A DNA stretch of 21,392 nt from Candidatus Auribacterota bacterium. Its GTDB lineage: Bacteria > Auribacterota > UBA6266. The notes below the pieces were generated by a model. That model searched no databases and had not been told where the DNA came from. It was given only the letters and a program-made list of their open reading frames with translations. Below, one piece after another: positions 1-19,329 of the stretch; position 1 is the stretch's first letter, and every line of letters starts with the position of its first letter. A program made the translations under genes and the position numbers. Where the stretch lies: the NCBI GenBank assembly GCA_023136205.1, contig JAGLRQ010000078.1, forward strand, positions 1-21,392, written 5' to 3'.

Positions 1-56
1 TCTAACAACAAAATGCACCGGACGGGAAAACACCGCCGGTGATTAAGACGTTGAAG
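1..56 (+). other. attC-like recombination site (short type, at window edge). Its R' box is occupied by the 168-bp repeat.
   Basis: R'' is TCTAAC (1-6), spacer AACAA, L'' AATGCACCGG (12-21). L'' pairs with L' CCGGTGATT (36-44), leaving one unpaired G15. The spacer AAGAC follows, then G50|TT. The present R' is GTTGAAG (50-56). Joining G50 to TTAGCA at 212 would give GTTAGCA, which complements R''. Confidence 0.6.
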
Positions 57-215
57 CTGTAGGATAAGTCAAAAGAAGAAAAATGGGCAAATTGTTCTTA
101 AAAAAGCTTTGCATAATTAGGGCTATAACCAACGATCTAAGGCCGTAACAGCATTTTACATGGGTTAAATTTTACAGATTTTTGAGGTGAGGGACTTTTC
201 CTACAGCCTCGTTAG
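48..215 (+). repeat. 168-bp repeat with inverted-repeat ends, copy 1 (mini-cassette or MITE-like element at the attC crossover point)
   Basis: Aligns over its full length with 1751-1918. By hand alignment there are 10 substitutions and two 1-nt indels. The ends CGTTGAAGCTGTAGGATAAGTC and GACTTTTCCTACAGCCTCGTTA are inverted repeats. Confidence 0.95.
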
Positions 216-230
216 CAATAAGGAAGAGAT

Positions 231-1043
231 ATGAAAGGGAAATACATTATTATTGGATGGGTTTTTCTATTTCTTGCTGGTGTAAATATATTGTTTTCTA
301 TACAGTTTCCAAGCAAACGTGATCCATCTATCGATATGCTGTTTGATTTTCCATCAATGTTAACTGTATTTTCAGCAATCGGATGGATCGTTGGTTATAA
401 TATATTCTCGATTGTTGCATTGATTATTGGTGTTATTCATTATTTCAAACACAAAAATTCTCTTGGTAGATTGGTTGTGATTTTATCTATTATGTTTATA
501 TTTTTAACATCTATAATTGGATTCTTTTATAATCCCGACAATAGATTAGACGTTGAACCATATGGCTTTACTTTCATAAGCCATGATAGTTCCGAATACA
601 AAATTGTTTTTTACAAAAAACCACAAGTGAGAAAAGCCACTACTCTTGGGGTACAATCGTATATATATGAAACAGGTACTTCTGGAGTTCTTCCATCTCT
701 TAAACGAGCAGAATTTATACCATTATCAGACACTGCAGCTTTTAGCTCTAATTTAGAAGAAACAATAAAAATATTTTCAAATATATCTGGATTAAAAACC
801 CCAAAAATAAAAATTGAAACGTCTCCTTTGGGGCAAAAGGGAAGTTATTCAGGAACAAAAATAATTAATAATCAAGAATTTTCTGTTAGGGGTGTTGTTT
901 ATGTTGGACAAGTATCAGCAATTCATGCATTGGAGATATACCCCAGTTCTGTCATTAGGGAGTTAGAAAGTATATCCCCAGGAGCAAGCGACTCGTCGTT
1001 TTTAAGTAGTATTAGATTTAAAAACAAGTTCGAAGGAAAATAG
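231..1043 (+). CDS. Hypothetical membrane protein: hydrophobic N-terminal half with several TM helices, soluble C-terminal half
   Basis: 270-aa ORF with AAGGAAGAG upstream of the ATG. Hydrophobic segments in about the first 100 residues. No family recognised. Confidence 0.65.
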   Translation: MKGKYIIIGWVFLFLAGVNILFSIQFPSKRDPSIDMLFDFPSMLTVFSAIGWIVGYNIFSIVALIIGVIHYFKHKNSLGRLVVILSIMFIFLTSIIGFFYNPDNRLDVEPYGFTFISHDSSEYKIVFYKKPQVRKATTLGVQSYIYETGTSGVLPSLKRAEFIPLSDTAAFSSNLEETIKIFSNISGLKTPKIKIETSPLGQKGSYSGTKIINNQEFSVRGVVYVGQVSAIHALEIYPSSVIRELESISPGASDSSFLSSIRFKNKFEGK

Positions 1044-1046
1044 AAA

Positions 1047-1661
1047 ATGAATCTAGGGGAAATTATCATAACTAGTTTAGGTGGCTCTGCTGTTTTATTG
1101 ATGAGTATTGGATTTTTGGTTAGGTCAATTATTAATCATTTTTTATCTAAGGATGTCGAAAAATTTAAAACTGATTTAAAATTATCTTCGGTGGAGCATG
1201 AAATAAGATTTTCAAAATTACAAGAAAAACGGGTAGAAAAAATCGAAGAAATATATCTAAGCCTACGATTTACTTTAGGAAAGGTTAAAGATTTTATTAA
1301 TCGTACGGAGAGAGATGTTGATCCATCAGAAAATTCAGACGAAAGGAAAGACAAAAAACAATATTTAGCTGTAGATGCTATAGAAAAAGTTTATAAAATA
1401 TTTGGAGACAATAAAATTTGGTTAGCAGGGGATGTTGTTGACAAGATAGAAAAATTAATGAATGTAGCCTATCTCCCTGCAATTGAGCTTGCAGATATTC
1501 GCAAGTATAGGAAAGATGAATCTATGCAAACGGAAATAATGAAAACTTGGAAGAATGCATGTGTAAAATTTGAAGAAGAAGCTCCTGTAATCCTGTGTTC
1601 CGTCGAAGAAGAGTTCCGACATATATTGGGTGTTATAGATATGAATAAAAAAAATTGCTAA
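1047..1661 (+). CDS. Hypothetical protein: one N-terminal TM helix followed by a charged, helical or coiled-coil-like region
   Basis: 204-aa ORF starting 3 nt after the stop of 231-1043, so both lie in the same cassette. GAAGGAAAA is upstream. The TAA stop overlaps the R'' box GCTAAC of the following attC. Confidence 0.65.
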   Translation: MNLGEIIITSLGGSAVLLMSIGFLVRSIINHFLSKDVEKFKTDLKLSSVEHEIRFSKLQEKRVEKIEEIYLSLRFTLGKVKDFINRTERDVDPSENSDERKDKKQYLAVDAIEKVYKIFGDNKIWLAGDVVDKIEKLMNVAYLPAIELADIRKYRKDESMQTEIMKTWKNACVKFEEEAPVILCSVEEEFRHILGVIDMNKKNC

Positions 1662-1759
1662 CAAAACGCTTAACTTGACCTTGAATTAGCGTTTGCGCAA
1701 AAATATAAATATTTTTGATTTCTGCATGTATGCAAGGCAAGTTAGCTTGAACGTTGAAG
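1656..1759 (+). other. attC-like recombination site (104 bp, conserved family). Its R' box is occupied by the 168-bp repeat.
   Basis: R'' TGCTAAC (1656-1662), spacer AAAAC, L'' GCTTAACTTGACCTTG. L'' pairs with L' CAAGGCAAGTTAGC (1733-1746), with two extra bases on the 5' arm. The spacer TTGAAC follows, then R' GTTGAAG (1753-1759). Joining G1753 to TTAGAT at 1915 gives a canonical GTTAGAT. Confidence 0.7.
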
Positions 1760-1918
1760 CTGTAGGATAAGTCAAAAGAAGAAAAATGAGCAAATTGTTC
1801 TTAAAAAAGTTTTGCATAATTAGGGCTATAACCAACGATCTTAGACAGTAGCAGCATTTTACATAGCCTGAATTTTACAGATTTTGAGGTTGAGGGACTT
1901 TTCCTACAGCCTCGTTAG
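1751..1918 (+). repeat. 168-bp repeat with inverted-repeat ends, copy 2
   Basis: Full-length match to 48-215. Its first 39 bp and last 50 bp are identical to the half-copies at 5603-5641 and 3972-4021. Confidence 0.95.
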
Positions 1919-1954
1919 ATTTGAAAATTTAAATATAACTTATGAGGCAATTAA

Positions 1955-2575
1955 ATGAAATACAATTGTTTAAAAGAAGTAACAAGATATTGGGATGATC
2001 TTCCTATAAGGCTTAAATTACAGGAAAAAACCCCTGAGCAAGGGAAAAAATATTGGGCAATAAGCATAAGAACAACCTATTTAAATTCTACTAGAAAGAA
2101 CCGTCGGTTTTACTATTCGAAGAAAATAGGTTTTTGGACCATCCCCACAAAAATTATAGTTGAATTATTAAAAGAAGCAGAAGAAAAAGAACTTTTTGAC
2201 AAAATATATAACGATAAGTATGAGCGTTTTGAGGGAGGAACAGCATCATTTATTTATTCAGATAAAACTCCAGATTATCAAAAACATCTTAATAAAATTA
2301 CTTGTTTTAGCAAAAATGAACCTGAATGGATATTTAAAAAACCATTTTTTGTAATTAGCCAAGAGCCTGGAAATACTTGGAGAAAGATAATGATTGTGAA
2401 GCAAGATTTTTCCTTAATAACCTTTCGTTCATGTACTACAGAAAAAACATATAGGCCAAAAATTTATATGGAGGATGATTCTCTTTGGTTCGTGGATAAT
2501 GCGATGATGGATGTTAGTGTGCAAGTAATGAAGATATTTAAAGAGCGTTTATTTGCATTAACCCAGTCGATTTGA
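1955..2575 (+). CDS. Hypothetical cytoplasmic protein (cassette ORF)
   Basis: 206-aa ORF with GAGG 7 nt upstream of the ATG. No TM segment or signal peptide. No family recognised. Confidence 0.6.
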   Translation: MKYNCLKEVTRYWDDLPIRLKLQEKTPEQGKKYWAISIRTTYLNSTRKNRRFYYSKKIGFWTIPTKIIVELLKEAEEKELFDKIYNDKYERFEGGTASFIYSDKTPDYQKHLNKITCFSKNEPEWIFKKPFFVISQEPGNTWRKIMIVKQDFSLITFRSCTTEKTYRPKIYMEDDSLWFVDNAMMDVSVQVMKIFKERLFALTQSI

Positions 2576-2590
2576 AAAGGTTTACGAAAA

Positions 2591-2694
2591 ATCTAACAAG
2601 ACGTTTTGGTGGATGTTGAATAAGCGTTGACGCAAAAAAACAAGTTTTTTTGATTTCTACGTAGTCGCAACACCACTGAACTCAACAGTTAGAG
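2591..2694 (+). other. attC-like recombination site (104 bp, conserved family)
   Basis: R'' ATCTAAC (2591-2597) is a perfect RYYYAAC. Spacer AAGAC, then L'' GTTTTGGTGGATGTTG. L'' pairs with L' CAACACCACTGAAC, with extra bases on the 5' arm. Spacer TCAACA, then R' GTTAGAG (2688-2694), the exact complement of TCTAAC. Confidence 0.75.
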
Positions 2695-2705
2695 TGAGAT
2701 AATAA

Positions 2706-3563
2706 ATGAAAAGAATGGCGGTGATAATTCTAATAGTTGTATGTATATCTTCTGCGTTCATAAGTGTTGCGGATTCTTATGAGGATCAATTTTCTGAAGC
2801 TGTGCTGATGGACGCTTTTGAAAAAGGCCGTTCTTTGGTCATAGCTAATATCCTCTCAGTTCAAAAGAAGAAAGCACAGCATGGTGCTTTTTATTACTAC
2901 AAGGTTAACGTTGTCCATCCTGTGATTCTTGGTGATTTGTTAAATGAAGATCTTCAGGAACCAGTAGAACTGTTTGCAGGAGCCTCTTATGGTGACACAT
3001 TGGGAAAAGGAGAAACCTATGCTTTATTTATTACAAAAGACGCGCCATTCTTTTTTTGTTGGGCTCACAGGGATAACATGCAAAGAATTAATCTAAAAAA
3101 TAAGCAAGAGGTTAGCACGTTCATATCTAAGGCCGAACAAGTGTATGCAAAAACCTCTATTCGAAAGTTTCGGGATACTGAAGCTGGGGATACACCTACA
3201 CTGCCAAACATTCCTGTAGAGCTGAGAAAGATATGCGATACGTTCAGAAAGAAAGAGGAGAACCGAGCCAAATTGGCAAAAACTATTTACCAATCAGAAA
3301 TGGGCTCACGTCCTGATGAATCAAAAAGGTGGTCATCGGATAGAATATATCTCCCTCCCAAGATACTTTTTTCACGAAGTCAAGTTTTACATCTTTTAGG
3401 TAAGCCGACTCTAAAAATAGGCAGGACATATTGTTGGTTCTGCGGTATAGATGATACCAGTTCTCCTAAATATGTAGGAATGCTCACAGGTACATTTGAC
3501 CAAGATGAAAATCTAATTAGATTGATATACAATAGAGACAAAATATTAAAATGGCAGAAATAA
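2706..3563 (+). CDS. Hypothetical secreted protein (cassette ORF)
   Basis: 285-aa ORF with a signal-peptide-like N-terminus (MKRMAVIILIVVCISSAFISVADS). No family recognised. Confidence 0.6.
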   Translation: MKRMAVIILIVVCISSAFISVADSYEDQFSEAVLMDAFEKGRSLVIANILSVQKKKAQHGAFYYYKVNVVHPVILGDLLNEDLQEPVELFAGASYGDTLGKGETYALFITKDAPFFFCWAHRDNMQRINLKNKQEVSTFISKAEQVYAKTSIRKFRDTEAGDTPTLPNIPVELRKICDTFRKKEENRAKLAKTIYQSEMGSRPDESKRWSSDRIYLPPKILFSRSQVLHLLGKPTLKIGRTYCWFCGIDDTSSPKYVGMLTGTFDQDENLIRLIYNRDKILKWQK

Positions 3564-3627
3564 GAAACACTCCAAAATAGAAAACAGGGTCAAATCTTTA
3601 ATCTTGACAAATAAAAATGATAAAAAT

Positions 3628-3720
3628 TTCTAACAATTGCTTCCGACATTGAATAAGCGCTTGCGGCAATAAAATATTGATGTTATGCTTGCGCAACGCG
3701 GATGAAGCAGGCAATTAGTC
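3628..3720 (+). other. attC-like recombination site (93 bp, same family) with a variant R' box
   Basis: R'' TTCTAAC (3628-3634), spacer AATTG, L'' CTTCCGAC, L' GCGGATGAAG, spacer CAGGCA, R' ATTAGTC (3714-3720), which has A where the crossover G is expected. It shares the central module TTGAATAAGCG...TTGCG with the sites at 1656 and 2591. Confidence 0.55.
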
Positions 3721-3745
3721 CAATAAAACCGAAAGAAGATACATC

Positions 3746-3991
3746 ATGAAAAAAATATTATTTACACTATTAATTTTTTTGGCATTATCAAACATCACTT
3801 TCGCCAAAGAGTATCAAAGCTCCTATGGTTTTTCCATCGATGTGCCTGAACATTGGCTTGTATTAACACCTAATGAATTAAAAAATAATCCAGACTTATT
3901 TGATTTTGAAAACGCTGATTTCGGAGGAATAGATAAAACTCTATTGAAACAGGTTATAAACAAAATATGGTCTGAATTTTACAGATTTTGA
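3746..3991 (+). CDS. Signal-peptide protein, probably truncated or chimeric: its last 7 codons (the final one shared with the junction) and the stop come from the right half of the 168-bp repeat
   Basis: 81-aa ORF with signal peptide MKKILFTLLIFLALSNITFA. From 3972 the reading frame runs into sequence that is non-coding in the two full repeat copies, and it stops at a TGA inside that sequence. Confidence 0.5.
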   Translation: MKKILFTLLIFLALSNITFAKEYQSSYGFSIDVPEHWLVLTPNELKNNPDLFDFENADFGGIDKTLLKQVINKIWSEFYRF

Positions 3992-4021
3992 GGTTGAGGG
4001 ACTTTTCCTACAGCCTCGTTA
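3972..4021 (+). repeat. Right-end half-copy (50 bp) of the 168-bp repeat
   Basis: 50/50 identical to 1868-1917. Ends ...CCTACAGCCTCG|TTACGT. Confidence 0.95.
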
Positions 4022-4083
4022 CGTTATATGAAAAATAAAATTCTACCAGCGAACCCAATGATGAAACAAGAAAGGAATATATT

Positions 4084-4470
4084 ATGATAAAAATACCTGA
4101 AGAAGTTAAAATCGCAATCGATAAAACAAATCCTATATGCGTAGCAACTGTTAATAGCGAATATATACCGAATATAATATATGTTACGTTTTTAAAATAC
4201 ATAAATGACACAACTGTGGTTATAGCAGACAATAAACTTGTAAAAACAAAAAACAACGTATTATCTAATGCCAATCTCTCTTTTGTTGTACTTGATCCTG
4301 AAACAAAAAAATCATATCAATTAAAAGGGAAAACGGAATATATAAACGAAGGTGAAAAATATCAGGACGTTTTTAATTGGGTGCAGGAAAAAAGACCGGA
4401 TCTTCATCCTAAAGGTGCTTTATATGTAACCATTGACGAAATCTTTTCCGGAGACAAGAAAATAATATGA
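4084..4470 (+). CDS. Pyridoxamine 5'-phosphate oxidase-like (FMN-binding split-barrel) family protein
   Basis: 128 aa with the typical small PNPOx-like pattern: IPEEVK..I......CVATV......P....V.......D..VVIADN...KT..N......LSFVV.D......YQLKGK.EY...GE. AAAGGA lies upstream of the ATG. The gene is AT-rich like its neighbours. Confidence 0.7.
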   Translation: MIKIPEEVKIAIDKTNPICVATVNSEYIPNIIYVTFLKYINDTTVVIADNKLVKTKNNVLSNANLSFVVLDPETKKSYQLKGKTEYINEGEKYQDVFNWVQEKRPDLHPKGALYVTIDEIFSGDKKII

Positions 4471-4479
4471 GAATTAGCT
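4424..4479 (+). other. Possible degenerate attC site overlapping the 3' end of the PNPOx-like gene
   Basis: ATGTAAC (4424-4430) ... imperfect stem AATCTTTTC/GAAAATAAT ... 6-nt spacer ATGAGA ... ATTAGCT (4473-4479). The pairing is weak, and the crossover position has A instead of G, as at 3714. Confidence 0.3.
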
Positions 4480-4532
4480 TAAAGTCTTGAAATATGAACG
4501 GGGCACAAAAACAAACAGAAAGGGAATAGAGA

Positions 4533-5537
4533 ATGCATATTGGCGAGCTAATAAAGAAATCGCGAGGGGGCGAGGTGCTCTTACGTGAAGAACTTGTCTA
4601 CCTGCTTGGCCACGAGCCGAATTCGGCTGAAAACTACATGGTTATGGCTGAGGCAACCCGTATCTCGAAAGAGCTCTCAGATGGCAAGGCTGAAGTCCAT
4701 GCTCAATTCGCGATCAATCTCGCACCGTGTCCTTGCGACTGTCTCTTCTGCTCTTTCGCAAAAATTAACGGTGTATTCACCGAGGCGACAGAGTTGACCC
4801 CGGAGCAAGCCGTGGCCTACGCCCTCCAATTTGAGAATGACGGCGCGAATGCTGTTTTCATGATGTCAACGGCCAAGTATCCATTTGAAGGCTTCATAGA
4901 GATGTCGCAGGAGGTTAGGAACAATCTGATGCCCGAAACAACATTGATCGCTAACGTCGGTGACCAGTCGCTCAAGAATGCAGCCAAACTTAAGGAGGCT
5001 GGCTTTTCCGGTGTGTATCACGCCGTTCGCCTGCGGGAGGGAATAGACACCAGCCTTTCAGTGAAAAAGAGAAAAGAGAGTATCAGCAACTTTAAAGAAG
5101 TCGGTCTTGAGGTGGGCACATGCGTCGAACCCGTGGGCCCGGAACATACAAACGAAGAATTAGCTGAGATGATAGAATTCACGGCTTCCTTTAATCCCTC
5201 ATACAGCGGCGCAGCCAGGCGCATCCCCATTCATGGAACCGCAATAGCCAAACGCGGGGTGATCAACGAACTGCGTATGGCCCAAATAGTCGCGGTCACC
5301 CGATTGGGAATGCCACGGACTGTAATGGGTAACTGTACACATGAGCCTTGTACTCTGGGTGCGATCGCCGGAGCAAATCTCTTCTGGGCGGAAGTCGGTG
5401 CCAATCCCAGAGATACTGAGGAGAAGACAGAGGAAGGCAGAGGGGAAACCGTTAGTGACTGCAGTTCTATTTTTCAGGAAAGCAATTGGGACGTCTGGAG
5501 CGGTCCATCACGCTATTACAATGGAAGTTCATCATAG
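4533..5537 (+). CDS. Radical SAM enzyme, biotin synthase (BioB)/HydE/ThiH-like family
   Basis: 334 aa. CxxxCxxC cluster motif C-PCD-C-LF-C within AINLAPCPCDCLFCSF. BioB-like C-terminal region (CTHEP...GAN.F). GC is about 53% by eye against about 27% for neighbouring cassettes. Confidence 0.8.
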   Translation: MHIGELIKKSRGGEVLLREELVYLLGHEPNSAENYMVMAEATRISKELSDGKAEVHAQFAINLAPCPCDCLFCSFAKINGVFTEATELTPEQAVAYALQFENDGANAVFMMSTAKYPFEGFIEMSQEVRNNLMPETTLIANVGDQSLKNAAKLKEAGFSGVYHAVRLREGIDTSLSVKKRKESISNFKEVGLEVGTCVEPVGPEHTNEELAEMIEFTASFNPSYSGAARRIPIHGTAIAKRGVINELRMAQIVAVTRLGMPRTVMGNCTHEPCTLGAIAGANLFWAEVGANPRDTEEKTEEGRGETVSDCSSIFQESNWDVWSGPSRYYNGSSS

Positions 5538-5538
5538 C

Positions 5539-5610
5539 ATCGAACAAGGCGCTACACCTGACCGCTATTCCGCTGCGCTCCATTACGGCAGGCGAGCTTG
5601 GTCGTTGAAG
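5539..5610 (+). other. attC-like recombination site (72 bp, GC-rich, belongs to the radical SAM cassette)
   Basis: R'' ATCGAAC (5539-5545) lies directly after the TAG stop. Spacer AAGGC, then L'' GCTACACCTGACCG. L'' pairs with L' CGGCAGGCGAGC, with extra bases on the 5' arm. Spacer TTGGTC, then R' GTTGAAG (5604-5610), whose TTGAAG is the first 6 nt of the repeat's left end. Confidence 0.6.
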
Positions 5611-5641
5611 CTGTAGGATAAGTCAAAAGAAGAAAAATGAG
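5603..5641 (+). repeat. Left-end half-copy (39 bp) of the 168-bp repeat, supplying the 5' leader and ATG of the next ORF
   Basis: 39/39 identical to 1752-1790. Identity ends 2 nt after the ATG at 5637. Confidence 0.95.
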
Positions 5642-6371
5642 AATATTTTATAAACTTGTAAAAATATCTTTAATAGCTAGTTTGTTAAGCTATGTACTCT
5701 TTGTTCTTATATTTGCGGCGGCGGCGTTGCTTGTTGAATCACTATTCTTGCAAATAATTGCCGGAATAGTTTTAATAACGGCTCCTATATCTATGTCTTT
5801 CTTTTGGGGGTCTATGATCTATGATTGTGTAGTTACAATAGAAAACAGGAAAAAGATGGCATTATGGTTGTTATTAATAATATTCACAAATTTTACCGGT
5901 TCATTAATATATTACTTTGTTAAGAAAAGATATAGGTATGTCCCTGCGGGGGAGGTAACGGTAGAGGAAAAACAAGATATAAATTGGTGGGATAAAAATT
6001 GGAAGTGGATTGTCCCTGCCGGTTGCTTAACAATAGTATTGATATTTTTTATTTTCATAGGAGCTTTGTTTGTTGGAATAAGTTCTATAATGAAAGGAAT
6101 GGCTGTTTATAAATATCCTATGAAACTTGTGAATCAAAATGAAGGAATAACAGAACTTCTTGGGAGTCCTATAGAGTCCACTTTTATGATGCAAGGGGAT
6201 GTTTCGACAAAGGGAGATTCCGGAATAGCTGATTTATTAATTCCTGTAAAAGGCCCTAAAGGCACGGGGACAATATATGTTAGTGCTGAAAAGAACTTGG
6301 GGCAGTGGGAATATATCACTTTAGAGATAAAAATAAAATCAACTTCTGAAAGAATTAATTTAATTGAATAA
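5637..6371 (+). CDS. Membrane protein with a PLDc_N-like short TM motif and a C-terminal Coa1-like (cytochrome oxidase assembly factor 1 family) domain
   Basis: 244 aa with multiple N-terminal TM helices. LLLIIFTNFTGSLIYYFVKKR resembles the PLD-nuclease N-terminal motif. The C-terminus (V..N..I.ELLGSPI......GD.S..G..G.A.L.IPVKGPKG.GTIYV.A.K..G.WEY..L) resembles Coa1-family domains. No attC is recognisable downstream. Confidence 0.55.
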   Translation: MRIFYKLVKISLIASLLSYVLFVLIFAAAALLVESLFLQIIAGIVLITAPISMSFFWGSMIYDCVVTIENRKKMALWLLLIIFTNFTGSLIYYFVKKRYRYVPAGEVTVEEKQDINWWDKNWKWIVPAGCLTIVLIFFIFIGALFVGISSIMKGMAVYKYPMKLVNQNEGITELLGSPIESTFMMQGDVSTKGDSGIADLLIPVKGPKGTGTIYVSAEKNLGQWEYITLEIKIKSTSERINLIE

Positions 6372-6429
6372 ATTGAGCAAACGGAAACATAGATAACACT
6401 TTCTTCCGGGTACATGGGTAACACTAATT

Positions 6430-7605
6430 TTAATCTTCAAAGATTTTATCAAAGTTACCGGTTTCCCGCATTAGTTTCCGCCATTTACAAACAAAATCAT
6501 TGTACCTTTCAAACACCTTTTCTTCTTTTTCGTAGGCAGACTCAAGCGTCGAAACAAGTTTCTCCGTTTTCTCCGCAAGATCACTTTTTGCGGTTTTATT
6601 ATATTGTAATGTTAAAAGTTTGCCTGCCGCCCTCACGTTCGGGATTAAGGTGCTTTCAAGAAATTTAGCCGGATAGGGCTGCAGCGAAGATATAGGGACA
6701 GGGACAAAACCTTCTTTCGCTTCAGGTTGAGTTTTTAGCTTTTTCCTTATATGCATGAACCCCATCGCGTCCCTTTTAAAACACTCCCATTCTTCCGGCT
6801 TCTCAGGAACAGAACAGCTCTTTACACAAAATTTCTCATCTAAAATAAATTCAAACCCATACATTCTTGAAGATATCAGATAATCAATATCTTCCTTTCC
6901 CAGAATAAAGGGGTCATAAGGAATTTTCTCAAATAATTTTCTATGAACTACCGTGTTTCCTTCTAAAAACATGTTTCCCCTGTTGTCATTAAACAACTCC
7001 TCAACAACAGAAGATTCATCCCATGATTTCTCCTTCCACTCCGGAAGTTTTTCCTTCACGCCCTCAACACATGAACAACCCATTGCTCCATATACCGCGC
7101 TTTCACCCTTAAGAGCCCGTCCAATATTTTTAGTGGCCAGCTCCAGCCAATCAGGCAATTCAATAAGCGAGTTATCTTTAAGTATTATCGCAATTTCGGC
7201 TCCCAAAACATGGGCCGCAAGCAAACCTAAATTTTTTATCTGGCCGGGATTTCCGTATTCAATATGCTCCGTAAGCTCTCCAAACCCCTTAATCGTAAGC
7301 AGGTCTCTCACCCTTGTCATCTGCCGGAGAGCAAAAAGTTTCACATCCAGAAATTCTTTATATGGATCAATAAGTACCTGAAGCTTCTTCTGCATCTGTA
7401 TATCATAACCCTTGTGATTAGACACTCCAAGGAGGACAACCGCAAAATCTTTATCATTCAGCTTTTTTAAACTATCCAATAGATTGATTACAGGGCACTG
7501 GCCGTCCAGAGGTGTAAAATGCTCCAATACAAAATCTTTCCTGGCAGACTTAACATGTTCGAGGGGCGGCCCCCAGTAAGTTGGTATCACAAACACTTTT
7601 TTCAA
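6430..7605 (-). CDS. Hypothetical protein, possibly a glycosyltransferase-like fold. Last gene of the polX-nth operon.
   Basis: 391-aa ORF with a TTG start, preceded by GAAGGAGA 6 nt upstream. It begins 28 nt after the nth stop. The N-terminal VFVIPTYW resembles GT-A starts, but I cannot see a clear DxD motif. Confidence 0.6.
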   Translation of the reverse strand: MKKVFVIPTYWGPPLEHVKSARKDFVLEHFTPLDGQCPVINLLDSLKKLNDKDFAVVLLGVSNHKGYDIQMQKKLQVLIDPYKEFLDVKLFALRQMTRVRDLLTIKGFGELTEHIEYGNPGQIKNLGLLAAHVLGAEIAIILKDNSLIELPDWLELATKNIGRALKGESAVYGAMGCSCVEGVKEKLPEWKEKSWDESSVVEELFNDNRGNMFLEGNTVVHRKLFEKIPYDPFILGKEDIDYLISSRMYGFEFILDEKFCVKSCSVPEKPEEWECFKRDAMGFMHIRKKLKTQPEAKEGFVPVPISSLQPYPAKFLESTLIPNVRAAGKLLTLQYNKTAKSDLAEKTEKLVSTLESAYEKEEKVFERYNDFVCKWRKLMRETGNFDKIFED

Positions 7606-14258: not shown

Positions 14259-14328
14259 TTTAAACTCCTTATTGCGTGAAACTGTAATTTATAGAACAAA
14301 GTAAATATAAATTACTAAGATGAACGTA

Positions 14329-14349
14329 ATCCCGAACTTGTTTCGGGAT
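14329..14349 (-). other. Perfect 8-bp hairpin in the 105-nt porD-porA spacer
   Basis: ATCCCGAA cttgt TTCGGGAT. No U-tract follows on the coding strand, so it is not a canonical intrinsic terminator. Confidence 0.4.
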
Positions 14350-18101: not shown

Positions 18102-18373
18102 GACCGTGCACCCGGCCTCGAGGCTCCCCAAAAATTCATCCACCAGCTCCATCGCTCCAGCCAGGCACTCCCACAGCACAAGCAAATTTTTGTTTACCGC
18201 TGCTTTCTTCCAAATCTGACGGGGTTCACAAACATGCCTTCCATGAGACCCAGCCTTCACAGCTAAAGAAAACCGCTTCAGAAAATCCGGGTACCCTCTT
18301 AACAAGGGAATTAAATCCTGCTAGAGCGGATTGCAGGTTACAGGGCACCGCTACCTCCCCATCTAGCACGGTC
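18102..18373 (-). ncRNA. ffs: Signal recognition particle RNA, long (Bacillus-type, Alu-domain-containing) form, about 272 nt
   Basis: The minus strand reads CCGTGCTAGATGGGGAGGTAGCGGTGCCCTGTAACCTGCAATCCGCTCTAGCAGG..., nearly identical to my recollection of the B. subtilis scRNA 5' domain. It contains the domain IV motif GTCAGATTTGGAAGAAAGCAGC and ends GGGTGCACGGTC, which pairs with the 5' end. It sits upstream of dnaX as in Bacillus. The ends are approximate. Confidence 0.85.
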
Positions 18374-19213: not shown

Positions 19214-19329
19214 AACCGGGAAAAAAGATTATTACCCCTTGCTGTTTTACTTCGTAAAACAAAGCGCCGGGGATACGTTCAACTTGGCAACTTATGTTCA
19301 CTACGTTCCATAAGTTACAGTTTCGCGTA

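Follow-up and report, generated by a model that had tools for sequence, protein, structure and literature searches.

Integron cassette arrays are invaded by mobile elements that recognise attC, the site through which their cassettes recombine. Among these, the IS1111-attC elements (ISPa21, ISPst6, ISKpn4) target attC specifically and directionally, by means of a DEDD transposase that is guided by a seekRNA, and have subterminal inverted repeats (PMC11187229, PMC3001079). Group IIC-attC introns are also specific for attC and for one orientation, and their outward promoters can affect the cassettes downstream; for both kinds of invader, insertion is antisense to the array and close to the attC 5' end (PMC3001079). 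A preference for palindromic or hairpin targets has been reported for members of the IS1182 family of insertion sequences (IS), including IS1272 (PMC5678879). In addition, arrays contain cassettes without an open reading frame (ORF-less cassettes), which are short non-coding units, some of them with promoter activity (PMC6557892; 10.1101/2023.11.21.568050). The element considered here is a gene-less repeat of 158 bp located in a stretch of 21,392 nt from Candidatus Auribacterota bacterium (contig JAGLRQ010000078.1; hereafter the window), whose positions 1-6400 are an integron cassette array. Very probably, it is a miniature inverted-repeat transposable element (MITE) whose movement depends on an attC-targeting IS1182-family transposase supplied in trans.

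The element is present twice in full length, as copy A (53-210) and copy B (1756-1913), both on the plus strand, both of 158 bp and 92% identical over this length, with nhmmer scores of 104 and 107 bits, respectively. Realignment of the 168-bp repeats in which the initial annotation had recognised it (48-215 and 1751-1918) returned exactly the 10 substitutions and two 1-nt indels counted there, and the inverted repeats noticed at the termini extend to 18 nt, 16/18 positions being complementary. These terminal inverted repeats (TIRs) occupy positions 53-70 and 1756-1773 on the left (TIR-L, GAAGCTGTAGGATAAGTC) and 193-210 and 1896-1913 on the right (TIR-R, GACTTTTCCTACAGCCTC). A 15-mer core of the TIR has six exact occurrences in the window and eight with up to three mismatches, where 0.9 are expected from shuffles. 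The only ORF in the 158 bp has 21 codons, and there is no transposase gene. As had been proposed, the element lacks a canonical attC: either strand folds only via the long-range terminal stem, the fold z-scores of both strands and of the 3' 100 nt range from -1.05 to +0.35, with the terminal-repeat stem or a weak local hairpin only, and the sequences outside the terminal stem are direct repeats, not complementary ones. The internal block CCAACGATCTAAGG, which had been put forward as a further pairing partner, is the best-conserved internal motif across copies (CGAYGATC), yet no pairing of it was seen. Both copies also contain a run resembling a ribosome-binding site (RBS) followed by the 21-codon ORF, at 85-150 and 1788-1853 (MGKLFLKKLCIIRAITNDLRP in copy A); the peptide is not conserved, the short ORF being missing from GC-rich copies.

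The element shares its ends with longer elements bearing a transposase gene. Scans of sequence collections with the 15-mer GCTGTAGGAWAAGTC were unspecific and gave mostly chance matches, and the true copies were recovered by regular expressions, BLAST and nhmmer on the fetched loci; all copy numbers outside the window are lower bounds. Matching ends that extend well past the search pattern were found in at least about 35 loci on genome and metagenome contigs. At least 24 short elements, of 99-221 bp and distributed over at least 17 unrelated loci, are bounded by paired ends of consensus GARGCTGTAGGAWAAGTC, and their named hosts comprise Nitrospirota, Gemmatimonadota, Syntrophaceae, Betaproteobacteria, Gammaproteobacteria and Sulfuricaulis. 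The ends of the window MITEs also bound elements of about 1.8 kb (loci L033, L071, L198, L236, L243, L251, L252 and L256), each with one ORF of 510-540 aa. The encoded transposase passes the NCBIfam IS1182 equivalog NF033551 (275.5 and 276.9 bits, cutoff 270), contains the Pfam domains DDE_Tnp_1_6, DUF772 and DDE_Tnp_1 above cutoff, and has more than 7,900 homologues, of which some from Gemmatimonadota carry the name IS1182 family transposase. A recombinase gene enclosed by the same termini, whose search had been recommended in the initial annotation, is thus found in the full-length relatives, in the form of an IS1182-family DDE transposase.

Among these relatives, L251 and L252 have matching ends and an identical triplet on both sides, and L253, for which one end was found, has the triplet on the recovered side. 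Pseudoalteromonas piscicida 2515 carries another copy in its complete chromid (NZ_CP074588.1, about 760,771-762,612), with both matching ends, their flanks and the identical triplet. Intermediate forms are represented by L205, an IS copy of 737 bp with an internal deletion, and by L243 (minus strand, 1674-3735), in which two MITEs of 120 bp stand in tandem behind a full IS, with a single GTT between neighbouring units; the right subterminal sequence of these two MITEs resembles that of the adjacent IS. No match was obtained in the viral contigs scanned with a 21-mer, and in the plasmid collection the MITE had no match at the DNA level and the transposase only three distant ones. Since the ends are common to the short elements and the transposase-bearing ones, the window elements can be assigned to the MITEs of an IS1182-family lineage. 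Their full-length relatives have TIRs and a single transposase gene, and the window elements themselves conform to the usual anatomy of IS-derived MITEs: they are short, lack a transposase gene, have the TIRs of an autonomous IS and occur in several dispersed copies (in the window two full and two truncated ones, at four attC sites).

The ORFs of the array are all encoded on the plus strand, mostly without a Pfam match, and are divided by five attC-like sites (1-52, 1656-1755, 2591-2694, 3628-3720 and 5539-5606), which were called, as were those in the foreign flanks, by inspection and folding and not by an attC covariance model. All five follow the pattern expected of attC, in which R'' (RYYYAAC) pairs with R' (GTTRRRY) around an L''/L' stem over 55-140 nt, 3' of same-strand ORFs. 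Site 0 (1-52, plus strand), occupied by copy A, has an R'' ATCTAAC that starts 2 nt upstream of the window, as seen in contig L004, ends in the GTT at 50-52 and folds on the bottom strand with z = -3.6. Site 1 (1656-1755, plus strand), occupied by copy B, consists of R'' TGCTAAC (1656-1662), the L''/L' arms and the spacer TTGAAC, and ends in the GTT at 1753-1755. Its paralogue, site 2 (2591-2694, plus strand; R'' ATCTAAC 2591-2597, R' GTTAGAG 2688-2694), is empty and has a single GTT, preceded at -1 by A and not by C. Site 3 (3628-3720, plus strand; R'' TTCTAAC 3628-3634) is also empty, and in its R' ATTAGTC (3714-3720) the crossover G is replaced by A, again with A at -1. This ATT variant is also seen at the left flank of MITE copies in L238 and L241. 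Site 4 (5539-5606, plus strand) begins with R'' ATCGAAC (5539-5545), ends in the GTT at 5604-5606 and is occupied by a truncated copy described below. The base at -1 in the window is therefore C in the three occupied attC sites and A in the two empty ones.

The description of the junctions given in the initial annotation was confirmed at both full copies. A GTT stands on both sides of each (50-52 and 211-213 for copy A, 1753-1755 and 1914-1916 for copy B), with a C before the left GTT each time. Deletion of the element together with one GTT restores R' GTTAGCA and GTTAGAT, which begin with the right GTT of copies A and B, respectively, behind recognisable attC bodies (R'' ATCTAAC and TGCTAAC). 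The element accordingly lies at the crossover of an otherwise intact attC, the position at which the empty paralogue at 2591-2694 shows its single GTT. This picture extends to the relatives outside the window: nearly all copies have GTT on both sides, where paralogous empty attC sites hold one, and the upstream flanks of nearly all of them are recognisable attC sites. The target consensus, RRC|GTT|AGGC, corresponds to the R' (1R) core at the 3' end of attC, with C at -1 in 24/26 sites, A at +1 in 24/26 and G at +2 in 21/26. In several foreign loci (L205, L214, L216, L182 and L238, the last by inspection) R'' and R' are complementary over 6-7 nt across the element. At 14/27 sites, a 5-mer exactly complementary to the restored R' is found 45-130 nt upstream, with about 2 expected by our own estimate, and a control 5-mer gave 0/27. 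Scattering over random non-attC positions was not what the additional copies revealed, as the further short copies sit at attC sites.

Insertion is also strictly oriented. All full-length MITEs of subfamily 1 score 63-122 bits in the attC orientation (98-122 except for L210), and reverse matches, where nhmmer reported them, score 19-31 bits. With respect to the attC top strand, the transposase genes of clade 1 are antisense in 10/10 cases and those of clade 2 sense in 4/4, the two clades being 43-46% identical. These features set the lineage apart from the described systems. IS1272 is described as replacing hairpins of varied sequence without target duplication, whereas here there is a sequence consensus, nothing of the attC is lost, GTT is present on both sides and the orientation is fixed. 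Unlike IS1111-attC, the present lineage combines a DDE transposase with terminal repeats, uses the 3' R' core, that is, the crossover triplet, and is rich in MITE derivatives. Group IIC-attC introns belong to the retroelements, encode a reverse transcriptase besides their ribozyme, are far larger and insert into the bottom strand, whereas the 158-bp element is too short for one and has no Rfam match. In a literature search that did not cover ISfinder, no report was found of an IS1182-family element, another DDE element or a MITE targeting attC, nor of the TIR sequence; an unpublished database entry may therefore exist.

Taken together, these data suggest a general scheme for the movement of the element. 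An IS1182-family DDE transposase, encoded by a full-length IS outside the window, would bind both 18-bp TIRs in trans, and insertion at the R' core, in one orientation relative to attC, would leave the element between two GTT triplets. The GTT pair would most likely result from staggered cleavage and repair, giving a 3-bp target duplication. The end GTT-GAGGC resembles the target GTT-AGGC, which suggests recognition of end-like target DNA. The left junction retains the entire attC followed by GTTGARG, and because GTT is regenerated beside the purine-rich end (GTTGARG resembling GTTRRRY), the integrase can probably still use the upstream attC. In that case the downstream cassette would acquire the MITE as its 5' leader and could carry it along.

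Several observations weigh against this interpretation or limit it. Two copies have unequal flanking triplets, ATT/GTT in L238 and GTT/GTC in L210, and one or two flanks are atypical. Two IS copies in a Nitrospirota metagenome-assembled genome (MAG; L033 and L071, CAWKOO010000002.1) lie in the loop of a small repeated hairpin, GTGGGCTCGGC GTT ACTCGCCCAC, which does not obviously resemble an attC; this points to hairpin-loop targeting in that branch. For a DDE element whose two ends are almost symmetric, so strict an orientation is unusual. The interiors of the subfamily-1 MITEs share little with the IS copies in hand besides the ends and a GGCTTATAAT-like motif, and no transposase gene is present in the window or in the contigs of up to 22 kb recovered for the host organism; neither integrase nor transposase genes were found in the 21,392 nt. 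Likewise, no orthologous empty site was found, as all contigs with ORF 231-1043 or ORF 1955-2575 carry the MITEs too, and the reconstructed empty site of the Pseudoalteromonas IS matched only its own record; mobility and duplication are for this reason read from the paralogous empty attC sites only. In the 50-kb Pseudoalteromonas region, the attC sites were too divergent for the simple attC pattern used. Moreover, the paired triplets have other possible sources, since insertion by the integrase IntI at G|TT would leave identical GTT on both sides, and so would a GTT borne by the element.

The last point leads to the possibility that the repeat is a minimal ORF-less cassette (TTGAAGC...CCTCG, 161 bp) moved by the integrase via an atypical site, as had been suggested from the sequence alone. 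G|TT stands on both sides exactly at the cassette boundaries within the array, the tandem units of L243 have one common GTT, and cassettes of this kind exist and can carry promoters (PMC6557892). Although short non-coding units between cassette boundaries are indeed what both have in common, true cassettes end in their own attC, and the present element has transposon ends instead: only the 18-bp terminal stem forms, with neither an R''/L''...L'/R' fold nor conserved pairing across 14 copies, the same classical inverted termini bound the 1.8-kb DDE-transposase elements, and the partial copies stop inside the element and not at attC-like boundaries. An origin as a cassette is, on balance, very unlikely. 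The initial annotation had also considered a non-autonomous, MITE-like derivative of an attC-targeting element and ascribed it to the IS110/IS1111 families or to a conservative site-specific recombinase. The first part of this proposal stands and the second does not, as an IS1182-family DDE enzyme was found in place of such a recombinase. IS1111-attC is the classical attC-targeting IS and has inverted repeats, in its case subterminal (PMC11187229, PMC3001079), but every full-length element with the present ends encodes an IS1182-family DDE transposase and no DEDD enzyme, the repeats are terminal, and the insertions lie at the 3' R' core, where IS1111-attC lies near the attC 5' end; movement by a DEDD recombinase with a seekRNA or bridge RNA as its guide is hence extremely improbable.

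A function for the downstream gene, as a structured RNA, a regulatory module or a conserved 5' leader, could account for the location of the element, which is always upstream of, and co-directional with, the next cassette ORF. The RBS-like run, ATG and 21-codon ORF of the window copies would fit this role, as would a -10-like motif (TATAAT/TATAAG/TATAAC) that recurs among subfamily-1 MITEs. However, RNAalifold on 14 copies returned the terminal stem only, with a positive (unfavourable) covariation term, and several stem positions vary at one end without a compensating change at the other. The element has no Rfam match at the gathering threshold or at E<=1, a promoter scan found no sigma-70-like site within the MITE copies, and the short ORF does not extend to the GC-rich copies. 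The genes downstream of copies A and B are unrelated, so that the repeat is not the conserved 5' untranslated region of one gene family either. Maintenance as an RNA or leader is thus very unlikely, and a regulatory side-effect after insertion is possible.

Besides the two full copies, the window holds remnants of two others that the initial annotation did not contain, one a right end (3967-4017) and one a left end (5607 to about 5645). The right-end fragment (plus strand) comprises the last 51 nt of the element, including TIR-R at 4000-4017, is 96% identical to copy B and is followed by GTT at 4018-4020. It gives the last seven codons and the stop of an 81-aa ORF (3746-3991), whose first 74 codons (3746-3966, plus strand) are the 5' fragment of a gene with homologues of 130 to about 200 aa; alignment of the ORF to a 130-aa homologue and to a pseudogene of about 200 aa reaches only to 3966. 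As gene homology ends at 3966 and MITE homology begins at 3967, comparison at the sequence level shows that the fragment arose by a deletion that fused the cassette to the next one; lost with it were the gene's 3' portion, the attC belonging to that gene and some 107 nt from the left of the MITE. In the resulting fused cassette (3721-5606), the truncated 81-aa ORF, the MITE remnant, a PNPOx-like gene (4084-4470) and a radical-SAM gene (4533-5537) follow one another without an intervening attC. A similar arrangement is seen in a soil-metagenome contig (L182, 2905-3002), in which an ORF reads directly into the right 100 nt or so of a MITE, with neither attC nor left end; it is an independent parallel of the truncation at 3967-4017, and it may be typical for MITEs to lose their left half recurrently.

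The left-end fragment (5607-5645, plus strand) follows the attC at 5539-5606 and consists of TIR-L (5607-5624) and about 20 nt more, its likeness to copies A and B fading past the ATG at 5637. This ATG, which corresponds to that of the 21-codon ORF of the MITE, is the start of ORF 5637-6371, homologues of which span residues ~110-244 only. No right end was found for the fragment, and a suspected degenerate one after ORF 5637-6371 aligns with a score of 15, no better than the mean of 15.3 for shuffled sequence. Both array fragments would stem from later deletions that ended within a MITE, one of which removed an attC and thereby fused two cassettes. The order of the two fragments, right end, cassette, attC and left end, is that of a circular permutation of a MITE plus cassette, and could reflect either a cassette circle linearised inside the MITE or two separate deletions.

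With respect to their significance, the attC-specific invaders in the literature found are the IS1111-attC elements and the group IIC-attC introns, and the DDE lineage represents a mechanistically different third kind, which occurs in several phyla, a cultured Pseudoalteromonas among its hosts, and inserts precisely at the crossover triplet. The integrase is regarded as the main force that shapes integron arrays, and the element adds a route to cassette fusion and attC loss, of which 3721-5606 is an example. In practical terms, tools for attC and cassette annotation will mis-split or mis-merge cassettes at these insertions. The lineage also offers a model for how a DDE transposase could be directed, with specificity for sequence, structure and orientation, to a recombination site that forms a hairpin. 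A more far-reaching view, in which the IS1182 clade and its MITEs are dedicated integron parasites that read attC much as the integrase does and form a functionally coupled system of DDE transposon and tyrosine recombinase in at least four phyla, is speculative and rather doubtful at present. Under this view, the folded hairpin or a one-strand R' core would be recognised, which would explain the strict orientation; regeneration of GTT beside a GTTRRR-like end would keep the upstream attC recombinogenic; each MITE, now leading the cassette behind it and perhaps providing its promoter, would be carried by IntI from array to array and from host to host; and deletions internal to the MITE would fuse cassettes.

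The remainder of the window is chromosomal core, with nth, PolX, folE, PFOR, recR, dnaX, a signal recognition particle (SRP) RNA and tRNAs. Identical contigs were seen in several metagenome samples and in two NCBI MAGs, and every one of them breaks at the array. Directly after the array lies an ORF of 391 aa without a Pfam match (6430-7605, minus strand). Further downstream, a 60-nt inverted repeat (14275-14334 and 19268-19327, 78% complementary) encloses about 5 kb with the PFOR gamma subunit, recR, ybaB, dnaX, the SRP RNA, a tRNA and a deaminase gene. The SRP RNA (18104-18371, 147 bits), which adjoins two tRNA genes, is of the large (Bacillus-type) bacterial form and may help to place the uncultured low-GC host.

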